Origin: Acidobacteriota bacterium | GTDB lineage: Bacteria; Acidobacteriota; UBA6911; JACQSX01 | DNA length: 64,000 bases | Reading direction: 5' to 3' | Assembly: GCA_036507075.1 (NCBI GenBank) | Contig: DASXQR010000003.1 | Coordinates: forward strand, 43,232 to 107,231 | Shown: positions 38,545 through 61,803 of the stretch, one piece after another | Numbering within the stretch: position 1 is the stretch's first letter | How the letters are laid out: each line of letters begins with the position of its first letter | Position numbers and translations under genes: made by a program | Notes under the pieces: generated by a model | Database searches by the model: none | Told to the model about the DNA's origin: nothing | The model's input: only the letters and a program-made list of their open reading frames with translations

Positions 38545-38803
38545 GAAGGTCAAAAGCCGAACGTCAAGCCTGGATTATTCACAAAAAGCTTAACCGCGAA
38601 GAACGCAAAGAACGCCAAGAGAGCGCAAGGGACGGGGGCTGAAACTTGAAGTATGAAGGCCTCAAACCGTGTCCTAAGTCTGCCTGGCGCCTTCATACTT
38701 CAAGTTTCAGCCCCCGTCCCTTGCGCTATTCTTAGCGCTCTTAGCGTTCTTGGCGGTGAAGATTTGTGAATAATCCAGGCTTGACGTTCGGCTTTTGACC
38801 TTC
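38545..38803. mobile_element. 259-bp near-perfect palindromic MITE-like element between convergent genes
   Basis: Perfect 41-bp outer and 39-bp inner arms with degenerate 9-mers between; 28-nt loop. Confidence 0.75.
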
Positions 38804-51906: not shown

Positions 51907-52414
51907 GGAGGCAGGAGGCAGGAGGCGGAAGGCAGAAGGCGGAAGGCGGAAGGCGGAAGGCGGAAGGCGGAAGGCAGGAGGCAGGGGGCAGGGGGCAGGA
52001 GGCAGCAGGCAGGAGGCAGCAGGCAGGAGCGTGATCGACGCCATCAGTACCGCGATCCGTCATCGACGCCATCAGTACCGCGATCCGTTAGGTCGCGGCG
52101 GGGAATGTAAGTCGACTCGTTGCCACCGCTGGATCGAAGGCAGAAGGCGGAAGGCGGAAGGCGGAAGGTAGGAAGCAGGAGGCAGGAAGCAGGAGGCAGG
52201 AGGCAGGGGGCAGGAGCGTGATCGACGCCATCAGTACCGCGATCCGTTAGGTCGCGGCGGGGACTGTAAGTCGACTCGTTGCCACCGCTGGATCGAAGGC
52301 AGAAGGCGGAAGGCAGAAGGCAGAAGGCAGAAGGCGGACACTGAAAGACTGAAAGACTGAAAGACTGAAAGACTGAAAGACTAACGACGAACCACAGACT
52401 ACGGACCACTGACT
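51907..52414. repeat. Composite insert: GGCAGGA/GGCGGAA arrays, copies of a ~79-bp element, ACTGAAAG octamers
   Basis: Element copies at 52034 (partial), 52062 and 52221; octamers about 52340-52382. Confidence 0.9.
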
Positions 52415-52963: not shown

Positions 52964-53076
52964 GGACCAAGCGGAATGCGGAATGGGGAATGCGGAATGC
53001 GGAATGGGGAATGCGGAACGATGAGCCTTGAAGCTGAGCGAAAGGGAAAGAGTAAGACTCTACGGGCCTTGGGCAA

Positions 53077-53928
53077 ATGAAACTAAGTCACAAATACCTG
53101 ATCGAAACAGAAATTACCCGGGTGAATCGAAGAGTGGATCAACCTCTTTCCCCTCATTCCTCCGGTCCCGCTCCCACTCTCCCACTCTCCCGCTCTCCCA
53201 CTCTCCCACTCTCCCACTCTCCCACTCGCCCACTCGCCCGCTCTCTCGCTCTCTCGCTCTCCCGCTTCCTGCTTCGCTGTATCTGCGCAGCTTTATGCCT
53301 GGCCGTCGCGGGCTGTCGCCGCGACATGCAGGACACGCCCCGGTATGAGGCTTATGAGGCAAGCCCGTTCTTTAAGGACGGCCTTTCTTCACGATCCCTC
53401 GTGCCGGGCACGATTCCTCGCGGATATCTTAAAGAGGATCCGGCATTCTATTTCGGAAAATTGGCAGGCGGCGCAGCGCCTGCGCGCGTCCGCACCCCCA
53501 TATTGACCGCCAGTGGGACTGCGACCACTGCTTTGCCGGAGTCGGACCTGATCACCCGGATTCCGCTTTCCGTCACAAGGCCGTTATTGGATCGTGGACA
53601 GGATCGCTTTGACATTTACTGCGCCCCCTGCCATGGGCGTGTCGGTGACGGTGGAGGAATGATCGCGCGTCGAGGTTTTCGTCCGCCTCCCACATTTCAC
53701 AGTGACCGGCTTCGGCAGGCTGCTGCAGGACACTTTTTTGACGTGATAACCAGCGGGTTCGGCGCCATGCCGGATTACGCCTCTCAATTGTCGCCGCAGG
53801 ATCGATGGGGGGTGATTGCCTATATCCGGGCGCTCCAGTTGAGCCAATGGGCTTCAGTTTCAGACGTTCCGGAGGAAGAGCGGCGCAAGCTGGAGATCGA
53901 TCGGCAAGGACCAAAGGTCGCCCGGTGA
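53077..53928 (+). CDS. actE: ACIII monoheme cytochrome c lipoprotein
   Basis: Lipobox AVAGC, DMQDTP, CAPCHG; N-terminus contains an octamer array. Confidence 0.88.
   Translation: MKLSHKYLIETEITRVNRRVDQPLSPHSSGPAPTLPLSRSPTLPLSHSPTRPLARSLALSLSRFLLRCICAALCLAVAGCRRDMQDTPRYEAYEASPFFKDGLSSRSLVPGTIPRGYLKEDPAFYFGKLAGGAAPARVRTPILTASGTATTALPESDLITRIPLSVTRPLLDRGQDRFDIYCAPCHGRVGDGGGMIARRGFRPPPTFHSDRLRQAAAGHFFDVITSGFGAMPDYASQLSPQDRWGVIAYIRALQLSQWASVSDVPEEERRKLEIDRQGPKVAR
53171..53266 (+). repeat. 12 x CTCCCACT-type octamer array, in frame within the actE 5' end
   Basis: Counted 12 degenerate units = 96 nt. Confidence 0.9.
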
Positions 53929-54004
53929 GAAGGCGGAAGGCGGAAGGCAGAAGGCAAGGAGCAGGAGGCAGAAGGCAGAAGGCGGAAGGCAGGCAGGAGG
54001 GTCG

Positions 54005-54158
54005 TCGCACGCCAGCCGAACCGCGCGCGTCAGCAAGCGGACCCTCGATTTTGCGGTTCTCACGGGGCTCTAATCATTCGGAAGCTCTCAGATAGCCTCC
54101 CGGCTGGAATCAGAGTTGGGACTGCGAGGGTCCGCTTGCTGACGCGCGCGGTTCAGCT
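54005..54158. mobile_element. REPIN/MITE-like element, copy 1
   Basis: Inverted ends gaaccgcgcgcgtcagcaagcggaccctcg / cgagggtccgcttgctgacgcgcgcggttc; interior matches 61508-61666 in reverse. Confidence 0.8.
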
Positions 54159-54269
54159 AAGGAGGAGGCGGCAGGAGGCAGGGAGGCAGGCGGCAGGAGG
54201 CAGGGAGGACTATGAAGGGGACGGAACGGTTATGAAGGAGAAGGAAGGGGAGGAGCGGAGGGCTGGGTT

Positions 54270-55484
54270 ATGAAGGAGGCTGACGCGTTTGTAGATGAAC
54301 TTACTCAGCCGCTCTCCACAATCTTTCCGGAGGTGGCAGGCATCCGCCGCAATGCCCTGACTGCCGGAGGCGCGTCGCTGATGTTGAGCGCCATCGGATG
54401 GTTCTTCAATCCCGTTCAGTTTTATCGGTCCTATTTGATCGCTGCCATCTTCTGGCTTGGAGTGGGCCTGGGTTGCCTCTCTATATTAATGGTGCAGTAT
54501 CTTTCGGGAGGCGCGTGGGGACTTGTCATCCGCAGGTTGCTTGAAGCGGGCGCCGGGACTTTGCGGGTAGTTCCCGCTTTGTTTGTTCCACTGGTCTTCG
54601 GCATTCATCAGCTTTACACCTGGTCGCGTGCCGAAGAAGTAAAGCACAGCGAAGTGCTGCAGCAGAAAACCGCGTATCTCAACCTGCCGTTTTTTTCCCT
54701 TAGGGCGCTGATCTATTTTGCCGCGTGGTTTGTTCTCGCACATCTCTTTCAGAATTGGTCGCTGGAACAGGATCGCACCGCGGATCGCGCCATTTTGCGC
54801 CGCCTCCAGCTTTTCAGCGGCCCCGGGTTGGTTCTCATCGCTCTCACCGTTACTTTTGCCTCAGTGGACTGGATCATGTCGCTGGACCCGAAATGGTTCT
54901 CCACGATCTTCGGATTGCTGCTGGCAGCTACGCAGGCCTTGAGCGCTTTTGCATTCGTGGTGGCGCTGTGTGTGTGGCTGCACCGGCGGGGACCGCTGGC
55001 GATGCTTTCGGCGGAACACTTTCAGGACTTTGGGAAGCTTCTTCTCGCGTTTGTGATGGTCTGGGCTTATCTTGGGTTTTCGCAGTTTCTGGTCATCTGG
55101 TCTGGAAATTTGCCCGAAGAGATACCCTGGTATCTGCGCCGGCTGCACGGAGGCTGGAATTGGATGGCGCTGCTGCTGGTTGTTTTCCAATTCGTGCTTC
55201 CCTTTCTCGTTCTGCTTTCGCGTGATCTGAAGCGCAACCCGCGCCTGCTCGGTTTGGTGGCGGGATGGGTGTTCCTAATGAGTTTTGTCCATCTTTTCTG
55301 GATGATCGCCCCTGAATTTCATCATCAAGGCTTTTATCTTCACTGGATGGATGTGACAACACTGGCGGGAGTGGGTGGTCTTTGGTTTGGTTACTTTTTG
55401 ACGCAACTGGGGCGCGCGCCGCTCCTGCCGATTCACGATCCCTACCTGGCAGAGGCGCTCAGTCATGGCGCGAGCCACGCGTAA
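54270..55484 (+). CDS. actF: ACIII membrane subunit F
   Basis: Polytopic; DWIMSLDPKWFSTIFG, FSQFLVIWSGNLPEE. Confidence 0.88.
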   Translation: MKEADAFVDELTQPLSTIFPEVAGIRRNALTAGGASLMLSAIGWFFNPVQFYRSYLIAAIFWLGVGLGCLSILMVQYLSGGAWGLVIRRLLEAGAGTLRVVPALFVPLVFGIHQLYTWSRAEEVKHSEVLQQKTAYLNLPFFSLRALIYFAAWFVLAHLFQNWSLEQDRTADRAILRRLQLFSGPGLVLIALTVTFASVDWIMSLDPKWFSTIFGLLLAATQALSAFAFVVALCVWLHRRGPLAMLSAEHFQDFGKLLLAFVMVWAYLGFSQFLVIWSGNLPEEIPWYLRRLHGGWNWMALLLVVFQFVLPFLVLLSRDLKRNPRLLGLVAGWVFLMSFVHLFWMIAPEFHHQGFYLHWMDVTTLAGVGGLWFGYFLTQLGRAPLLPIHDPYLAEALSHGASHA

Positions 55485-55691: not shown

Positions 55692-56204
55692 ATGAGCCAC
55701 TCAGAAGAGACCCCTGATACCAGCCACATCCAGAACCCGGAAGTTTCTCACGAGCGGAGTGATGTAAGCGTTCGCGGCATCCTGATTTTTGGCGTGGGCC
55801 TGATCATTTCGGCGGTAGTGATTCATCTGCTGCTGTGGTGGTTGATGATTTTCTTTGAGCATCGGGAAATCGCAAAGGAGCCCAAGGCATCACCTATGGC
55901 AGGCGGGCGACAGCGCTTGCCGCCCGAACCGCGCCTGCAACTGGCGCCGGGGCACGAAGTACACCCTGACATTGAAATGAAGAAGCTTCTTGATAAAGAG
56001 CGGGAAGTGCTTGGCAGTTACGGTTGGATTGATCCCGCCTCCGGCGTGGTGAGAGTCCCGATCGAGCGCGCCAAGGATTTGATTGCACAGCGCGGAATAC
56101 GGGAAGGCGGAAGGCAGAAAGCAGAAGGCGGGAGGGAGAAAGCGGAAGGCGGAAGGCAGAAAGCGGAAGGCGGAAGGCAGAAAGCGGAAGGTAAAAAATT
56201 CTAA
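55692..56204 (+). CDS. actG: ACIII subunit G-like single-TM protein
   Basis: HERSDV, one TM, PPEPRLQ, YGWID..VPIERA; position between actF and sco; repeat-encoded tail. Confidence 0.72.
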   Translation: MSHSEETPDTSHIQNPEVSHERSDVSVRGILIFGVGLIISAVVIHLLLWWLMIFFEHREIAKEPKASPMAGGRQRLPPEPRLQLAPGHEVHPDIEMKKLLDKEREVLGSYGWIDPASGVVRVPIERAKDLIAQRGIREGGRQKAEGGREKAEGGRQKAEGGRQKAEGKKF

Positions 56205-59774: not shown

Positions 59775-60135
59775 AGGCAGAAGGCAGAAGGCGGAAGGCG
59801 GAAAGCAGAAGGCAGAAGGCGGCAGGCGGAAGGCAGAAGGCAGGAGGCAGGAGGCAGGAGGCAGGAGGCAGAGGCAGGAGGCAGGAGGCAGGAGGAGGAG
59901 GCGTGGTCGACGCCATCAGTACCGCGATCCGCTAGGTCGCGGCGGGGAATGTAAGTCGACTCGTTACCACCACTGGATCGAAGGCGAACGGCGGAAGGCA
60001 GGAAGCGGGAGGCGGGAGGCGGGAGGCGGAAGACAGTTGAACAGAGCCGAGCGCGAAAGGTGGGAGTCGTAACTCGACACTCGTAACCCGAAACCCGATA
60101 ACCCGAAACTCGATAACCCGAAACCCGTAACTCGA
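59775..60135. repeat. Composite insert: GGCAGAA/GGCAGGA arrays, one ~79-bp element, GTAACCC arm
   Basis: Element at 59907-59984; cgtaacccgaaacccgataacccg at 60066-60135. Confidence 0.88.
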
Positions 60136-61134: not shown

Positions 61135-61425
61135 ATGCATATCGTCCCTCGCAAAACTTACCTGCTGATCTTTGTAACACTGTTGGCGCTGACGGCTCTC
61201 ACGGTGGCCGCGGCATTCGTCAATCTGGGACGGATGAACGCCGTAGTAGCGCTTACGATCGCCTGCGTTAAAGCTCTTCTGGTTACTCTCTATTTCATGC
61301 ATGCGCGATACAGCTCAAAGCTCACGTGGGTCATCATCGCCTCGGGGGCGCTGTGGCTCGGCATTATGCTCACTTTGACCATAACCGACTATCTGAGCCG
61401 CGGCGCGATGGGAACTTCGCTGTAG
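61135..61425 (+). CDS. coxD: caa3-type oxidase subunit IV
   Basis: Three TM helices, KALLVTLYFMH motif. Confidence 0.88.
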   Translation: MHIVPRKTYLLIFVTLLALTALTVAAAFVNLGRMNAVVALTIACVKALLVTLYFMHARYSSKLTWVIIASGALWLGIMLTLTITDYLSRGAMGTSL

Positions 61426-61773
61426 CAGAAGGCGGAAGGCAGAAGGCAGAAGGCGGAAGGCGGAAGGCAGGAGGCAGAAGGCAGGAGGCAGGAGGCGGGG
61501 GGGCTTGGCACGCCGGCCGAACCGCGCGCGTCAGCAAGCGGACCCTCGCGGTCCCAATTCTGATTCCAGCCGGGAGGCGTTCTGAAGCTTCCCGATGATT
61601 AGAGCCCCCTGAGAACCGCAAAATCGAGGGTCCGCTTGCTTGACGCGCGGTTCGGCTTGCGTGCGAGGATCCTCTTACCTCCTGCCTCTTGCCCTCCTGC
61701 CTCCGGCCCCCGCCTCCTGCCTCCTGCCTCCTGCCTCCTGCCTCCTGCCTCCTGCTTCCTGCCTTCCGCCTTC
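61425..61773. mobile_element. GGCAGGA/TCCTGCC arms enclosing REPIN/MITE-like element copy 2 (61508-61666)
   Basis: Left array 61425-61497, right array 61677-61773; interior is the reverse complement of 54005-54158. Confidence 0.8.
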
Positions 61774-61803
61774 CTCCACCGAGAACCTTTCTGCTAAATA
61801 GGG

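Follow-up and report, generated by a model that had tools for sequence, protein, structure and literature searches.

The chain of overlapping micro-ORFs that leads into actF in this Acidobacteriota bacterium is probably a by-product of repeat DNA and not a dedicated ribosome-passing device. Its three ATGs belong to the units in one degenerate copy of a genome-wide 10-bp tandem-repeat family. The existence of this repeat is beyond chance; the relay, given the repeat, is not. The feature is real, and it is an added case of the dispersed tandem-repeat type, with a relay that is explained by its own family. Overall, the best reading is one of microhomology-anchored repeat DNA filtered by selection. 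The stretch of DNA analysed (hereafter the window) comprises 64,000 nucleotides of contig C3, in a genome of 6.1 Mb and 233 contigs.

The actE-actF junction and its repeat insert

The locus is the junction between actE and actF in an alternative complex III operon, which is followed by cytochrome c oxidase genes (gene order actA-F, coxB/A/C/D). The upstream gene, actE (53077..53928, + strand), encodes the monoheme cytochrome c lipoprotein of the complex, and its TGA lies inside a GTGA of which the GTG (53925) is in the actF frame. The downstream gene (54270..55484, + strand, 404 aa) encodes ActF by a match to PDB 6lod_F (E 1e-93), with no family assigned by NCBIfam or Pfam. Between the two lies a repeat insert of 341 nt, consisting of a heptamer array, a hairpin core, a second heptamer array and a decamer array. 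Its left arm is a purine-rich heptamer array of the GAAGGC[AG] type that begins at the actE stop (53929..53992, + strand). The hairpin core (54014..54158) has 34-nt arms (54014-54047 and 54125-54158) that are 97% complementary, and the arm has 167 copies in the genome at up to three mismatches. The second purine-rich array, of the GGCAGGA type (54160..54209, + strand), shares the strand of the left arm. Among 52 paired hairpin cores, only this one has a purine-rich right flank, which looks as if a second left arm may have been truncated at the actF start codon. The degenerate decamer array (54207..54276, + strand) then runs into the actF start. Four units of 10 nt occupy 54207-54246; they are followed by a unit of 8 nt, a 10-nt segment that bears the SD and, at 54265-54274, a perfect modal unit with the actF start codon inside it. 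Anchoring of the array on the start of actF is therefore supported, as its last unit coincides with the start codon.

Contigs from two DNA runs, either of which could be the source sample, span the junction from 54125 onward with identical letters, so the junction is not a slip of one assembly. Contigs of four sequencing runs contained no same-organism variant of the junction and none that spanned the hairpin core, and indels near 54181-54187 were seen only in low-depth contigs, which possibly represent other repeat copies. An Rfam scan of 53800-54400 (E up to 1) gave no matches, and scans of the same interval for sigma-70 promoters and for terminators found none of either.

Most long spacers of the operon contain short tandem arrays, several of which begin on a stop codon. 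At the actD-actE junction (52976-53080), the ATGs of a GGAATGC-type array form micro-ORFs that end on ATGA 53021 and ATGA 53077; this relay is again repeat-made, and probably the same as the first relay described in the original prediction. An octamer array lies in frame within the signal-peptide region of actE (53171-53263). The same site holds a different heptamer array in one relative (L021, 1-165) and a third unit in another (L004), and an orthologous site with such a variety of units suggests that arrays arise by some general process. The gene after actF has captured a GGAAGGC-type array (56102-56191) in frame, and this forms its C-terminal tail. A second dispersed element, of about 119 nt, is present between heptamer arrays as two copies 159 nt apart and 94% alike (52030-52335), with a third copy after coxA (59896-60030). 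A canonical inverted copy of the hairpin core, 92% alike over 151 nt, lies at 61425-61775 with a purine-rich left arm and a pyrimidine-rich right arm.

The relay of micro-ORFs

The relay was originally described from three ATGs at 54212, 54232 and 54270, each within TATGAAGG, and this description was confirmed, with every coordinate and peptide correct. The window has only one further + strand copy of TATGAAGG, at 38652; the other pair of this word lies in a long hairpin at 38600-38770, which is not a decamer array. The 13-mer GGTTATGAAGGAG is indeed present at 54228 and 54266, and these are its only two copies in the whole genome, both strands searched. Micro-ORF 1 (54212..54235, + strand, MKGTERL) is formed by two ATG units 20 nt apart, and its TGA overlaps ATG 54232. 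Micro-ORF 2 (54232..54273, + strand, MKEKEGEERRAGL) is in the actE frame and ends with a TGA that overlaps the actF ATG at 54270, as the 8-nt unit reduces the spacing from 40 to 38. This second link depends on a unit 2 nt short, by arithmetic about a one in three event.

The GGCAGGA array had also been credited with supplying the SD of the first ATG. Its purine-rich repeats do give SD-like sites, but the GGAGG that was named (54204-54208) is only 3 nt away from the ATG, and an AGGAGG at 54195-54200, 11 nt before ATG 54212, is better spaced. The SD-like sites of the three ATGs score -10.3, -8.3 and -10.0 kcal/mol against a generic anti-SD, which was used since a 16S 3'-end motif has one hit in this genome, with no evident rRNA context, so that SD energies here are comparative only. 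The predicted fold of 54190-54300 is weak (-15.8 kcal/mol).

Upstream, the relay has no connection with actE. The 283 nt from the actE stop to the first relay ATG (53929-54211) are free of ATG and contain the 34-bp hairpin, and what precedes the relay is no more than a loose series of TTG starts within this hairpin. The frame of GTG 53925 closes at 54093, 117 nt short of it. In mycobacteria, the ORF of a MIRU also takes over from the upstream gene. No such takeover from actE was found in 53925-54211, and since no ATG-started frame leads from actE to the relay, the relay does not carry actE ribosomes and is not a MIRU-type bridge.

The frame of micro-ORF 2 raises a different history, in which the insert entered the 3' end of actE in frame and gave it a long junk tail to TGA 54271 that preserved the coupling, a stop at 53926 came later and cut this tail, and micro-ORF 2 is the remnant. 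The actE frame does run without a stop through 114 codons, from 53929 as far as the TGA that overlaps the actF ATG, and repeats have been captured in frame at the actE N-terminus, the actG C-terminus and dgoK. However, a frame this open arises by chance with P 0.09 (first-order Markov resampling), and the pattern recurs in 17 of 561 spacers that contain arrays and in 32 of 687 that do not, a count in which the actE-actF junction itself falls below the gene-score cut-off. Other arrays in the operon likewise begin at a stop codon. Relic capture is accordingly the most improbable of the histories that we weighed.

A genome-wide decamer family

A short BLAST of 54200-54290 against its own genome gives matches on many contigs. 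The unit can be written as GGG-(TTAT, GAAT, GAAG, GGAT, GACG)-GAA, and under a strict definition the genome holds 39 arrays with 259 units, the modal unit occurring 76 times, while a relaxed definition gives 43 arrays. Neither the reversed nor the complemented control genome contains a strict array. Twenty of the 39 form 10 inward-pointing (convergent inverted) pairs, the actF copy being unpaired, and a decamer array precedes the hairpin-core arm in 13/39. For the most part, then, the family is the outer arm of intergenic hairpins; by eye, the interiors of the 10 pairs contain no gene-like frame. Where a relaxed array has an upstream gene on the same strand, the stop codon is inside the array or at most 30 nt away in 18 of 20 cases. 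With G-runs of three to five in each unit, the arrays might also form G-quadruplexes.

The two-unit decamer pattern has 34 matches in its own genome and none in 400 other genomes of the phylum, and at one mismatch the decamer pattern is missing from all five of the nearest genomes, two of which are only 63% and 77% complete. Its absence from the genomes searched indicates that the arrangement is young and not conserved among them. We found no publication on the decamer, or on repeat-made ATGA chains in Acidobacteriota, in a literature search that covered subscription papers thinly.

The relay follows from the arithmetic of the unit. As 20 equals 2 modulo 3, an ATG and an ATGA 20 nt downstream give the -4 geometry, and any two ATG units at this distance make an ORF of 7 codons whose stop overlaps the next ATG. 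An ATGA relay is present inside 33 of the 39 strict arrays, and in the 38 other arrays, where there is no gene start, the last ATGA is reached by a chain of depth at least 1 in 21 and of depth at least 2 in 13. Genome-wide, chains of depth at least 2 precede 17 of 902 predicted ATGA starts (1.9%) and 234 of 7,374 non-coding ATGAs (3.2%), so that relay chains are not enriched at gene starts; such gene-start rates are approximate, as our own dicodon gene finder misplaced several starts of the operon. The SD-like sites are similarly a property of the family. The median SD energy of 152 array ATGs is -6.9 kcal/mol compared with -3.2 kcal/mol for 600 sampled gene starts (generic anti-SD), and 43% of the former but 14% of the latter reach -8 kcal/mol or lower.

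The ancestral junction and the start of actF

Fifty-nine loci were collected from relatives, of which the 35 with actE adjoining an ActF at least 44% identical were counted and the other 24 left out; many of the 35 are close kin and not independent. These insert-free relatives show the original arrangement, namely direct coupling of actE and actF, mostly by ATGA overlap; here the insert separates the two genes. The spacing is a -4 overlap in 19/35 and falls within -14 to +10 in 34/35, GGAGGGC precedes the actF start in 16/35, and the repeat insert is present in none of the 35 junctions. The ActF of the closest relative, L021, has 405 aa and is 75% identical, with no gaps over residues 9-403. 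L021 also has the ATGA overlap and an 8-nt SD segment identical to that of actF (CGGAGGGC, 54256..54263, + strand), in which GGAGG lies 8 nt before the ATG, whereas its spacer and second codon differ. From this alignment, the start position of actF and its SD are ancestral, and the sequence surrounding the ATG now has the form of a repeat unit. The segment could instead be repeat-derived, given that an array on contig C42 matches 54257-54276 at 19/20. A new actF start with a repeat-made N-terminal extension was considered and ruled out, as the start is collinear with that of the closest relative; more distant ActF relatives start about 10 residues later.

With an SD of its own, in the strongest 6% of the 600 sampled starts, actF has no need to borrow one from the repeat. 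This bears on the proposal that the array is an exapted loader, kept for its SD-rich sequence after coupling was broken, whose micro-ORFs recruit ribosomes past the hairpin and either hand them to actF or damp it by occlusion. SD-like sites are found at all three ATGs within a weakly folded region, and -4 overlaps are an efficient coupling geometry; short uORFs can deliver ribosomes, according to the available part of one report (PMC12548453), and both uORF coupling and RBS occlusion are described for Sinorhizobium in the accessible portion of another (PMC13285730). The relay is also present in a second decamer array that ends on a start. Nevertheless, the depth of the relay and the strength of its SD sites are those of the family background, the relay is conserved in 0/35 of the relatives' junctions, and it has no link to actE. 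We regard the loader as unlikely, though less so than the other histories weighed here.

Arrays that end on start codons

The original prediction also proposed a duplication of the start-codon context, possibly target-site-like. Part of this stands. Among 92 genomic copies of GGTTATGAAGG examined, the next two bases are GG in 57, GT in 23 and AG in two, and both AG copies are at this junction. This private variant, common to unit 3 and the actF start, makes some local copying of the 13-mer likely. The units themselves belong to the genome-wide decamer family and are not a private duplicate. With regard to a target-site-like duplication, the ends of the insert share only NTGA (53925, 54270) and array spacers do not keep frame; the nearest empty site, with an ActF 75% identical, is too diverged for the insert ends to be compared.

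A wholly private event, in which the actF start region was copied during insertion and the copies became micro-ORFs, would fit the exact 13-mer with its non-consensus AG (2/92), a 25-nt pair with 80% identity, and the position of GTGA 53925 and ATGA 54270 in one frame, 345 nt apart. Yet a family at 39 loci or more, nearly all of them away from starts, has the duplicated word as its modal unit, and the closest relative has another spacer and second codon. Preservation of frame across inserts was ruled out by the 561 array spacers, which have no frame bias (175/182/204, p 0.29), whereas 607 short spacers are biased. A genome search for duplicated contexts of at least 11 nt found them less often at predicted starts (8/2,033) than at non-coding ATGs (1,735/26,566). 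A private duplication is thus improbable.

The actF junction does not stand alone, as it would have to if start-context repeats were a singularity of this locus: ATG-bearing arrays sit on ancestral starts at five other junctions. A predicted start lies inside two of the 43 relaxed decamer arrays, one of them the actF array itself, compared with a rough expectation of about 0.009 for random placement in non-coding DNA; docking on starts is therefore non-random and could be selected. Both of these arrays carry an intact relay into the gene, of depth 2 and 1, respectively. The second is at the dgoK/FAA-hydrolase junction (C56:27681-27723, - strand), where the array forms the last codons and the stop of dgoK and the FAA-hydrolase gene starts with ATGAA 6 nt inside it. 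Homologs in five relatives start at the same place or within one codon of it. A decamer array on C217 that opens into a 436-codon frame was left out of the counts, as its extension runs across a hairpin and another 231 nt lie before the predicted start, and arrays flagged on C100, C124 and C184 were rejected because they lie at the end of a predicted ORF.

Four heptamer arrays with ATGAC units, chosen by eye, also end on likely starts, at 412-441 (L088), 1442-1621 (L089), 227-249 (L090) and 1399-1438 (L092). By resemblance, we take the genes to be ispA, an MFS transporter, a DinB-like gene and an amidohydrolase. For all four, the starts of homologs lie no more than a few codons from the array ATG, although one relative each of the DinB-like gene and the amidohydrolase lacks an in-frame start there. 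The array of the MFS transporter gene is 180 nt long. None of the four has an SD at the array ATG (0 to -0.3 kcal/mol, on the comparative scale used above). At the ispA start, two relatives (L102, L103) have heptamer arrays too and a third has a bare ATGAC, which suggests that the match came first and the array later.

It is conceivable that ATG-bearing repeats dock on starts that match their unit (Met-Lys for the decamer, Met-Thr for the ATGAC heptamer) and that docked arrays are self-building ribosome-loading ramps, since ATGA overlaps are inevitable with periods of 20 and 14 nt. We consider this distinctly unlikely. Docking on starts is also the exception among arrays at large. Of 2,751 merged tandem arrays of all families in the genome (TRF score 40), those of period 7-10 lie at most 5 nt behind a sense stop in 329 cases and at most 5 nt before a sense start in 24. 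The modal 12-mer of the decamer is at a predicted start in 1/82 copies. Among array strands with at least two ATGs, 38/656 open in frame into a gene, most of them probably by chance.

In the by-product reading that we prefer, arrays would take hold or expand at sites with a short match to their unit (TGAA, ATGAA, ATGAC), and stop and start codons would often supply such matches. One unit may have overwritten, or aligned on, the actF spacer and second codon, with local copying between the start-codon unit and the unit 38 nt upstream. Selection would have demanded only that the SD and ATG of actF survive, and actF, formerly coupled to actE, would now rely on its own SD for initiation. Ribosomes may also initiate at the upstream ATGs, with no sign of selection for such starts, so that some ribosome loading is possible as a side effect. 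The closest genome found has an ActF only 75% identical, so that we infer the order of these events.

Comparison with known repeat systems

Repeats of the REP, REPIN and MITE-like kind are dispersed non-coding palindromes between genes. The hairpin core resembles them in being a dispersed, intergenic palindrome with about 167 arm copies, but its arms are extended by variable tandem arrays. Closer in kind are the G-rich heptamers of Xanthomonas (GGGAATC) and Nostoc, which in the available part of their description form degenerate intergenic arrays, often as convergent inverted pairs and mostly at or over sense-strand stops, and for which that part reports no regulatory role (PMC4692102). The decamer family has the same features, with many dispersed arrays of one unit, an intergenic, stop-hugging G-rich strand and convergent pairs. 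It differs in that the unit is a decamer, mixed with heptamer families and the hairpin core, and that the actF copy runs sense-strand into a start codon, a rare orientation. Unlike the Xanthomonas and Nostoc heptamers, the decamer unit contains ATGA and so makes micro-ORFs. Heptamer-derived satellites are in any case common in some bacteria, as stated in the accessible section of a further study (PMC6749651).

The TAACTGA repeats of Beggiatoaceae are also similar, as forward sets of short direct repeats just before starts, some overlapping upstream stops, with a translational role that the available portion of the report proposes and does not demonstrate (PMC4679880). Most of these sets are at starts and, as far as the same portion goes, they have no SD character (PMC4679880), whereas here only 2/43 arrays are at starts and the SD-like unit holds the ATG. 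Mycobacterial MIRUs resemble the actF array in having a repeat at a start codon and a short ORF with -4 coupling to the gene that follows, and they are described, in what is accessible of the source, as inserting at start codons as a rule (PMC12548453). The -4 coupled ORF is present here, but insertion at start codons is not the rule (2/43; 12-mer 1/82), and the decamer family has no fixed ORF and consists mostly of hairpin arms at stop codons. With NTGA coupling and uORF delivery, at least as the available parts of two reports present them, the junction shares the geometry of both links, and the ancestral actE-actF junction was such an overlap (PMC12548453, PMC13285730). In contrast to such devices, the start, stop and frame of the micro-ORFs, which are putative, are conserved in 0/35 of the relatives' junctions.

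What start-docked repeats may mean

Convincing relays and SD sites come for free with short repeats that have ATGA in their unit and a period, or twice the period, of 2 modulo 3, so claims about relays need a null at the level of the repeat family. If the micro-ORFs at this junction do load ribosomes, repeat DNA would repair a coupling that repeat DNA broke. If docked arrays were loading ramps, repeats could break a coupled respiratory junction while the downstream subunit stays expressed, at a level tuned by the length of the array. Arrays end on ancestral starts above random placement, and this bears on the origin of these little-studied repeats through microhomology at gene boundaries.
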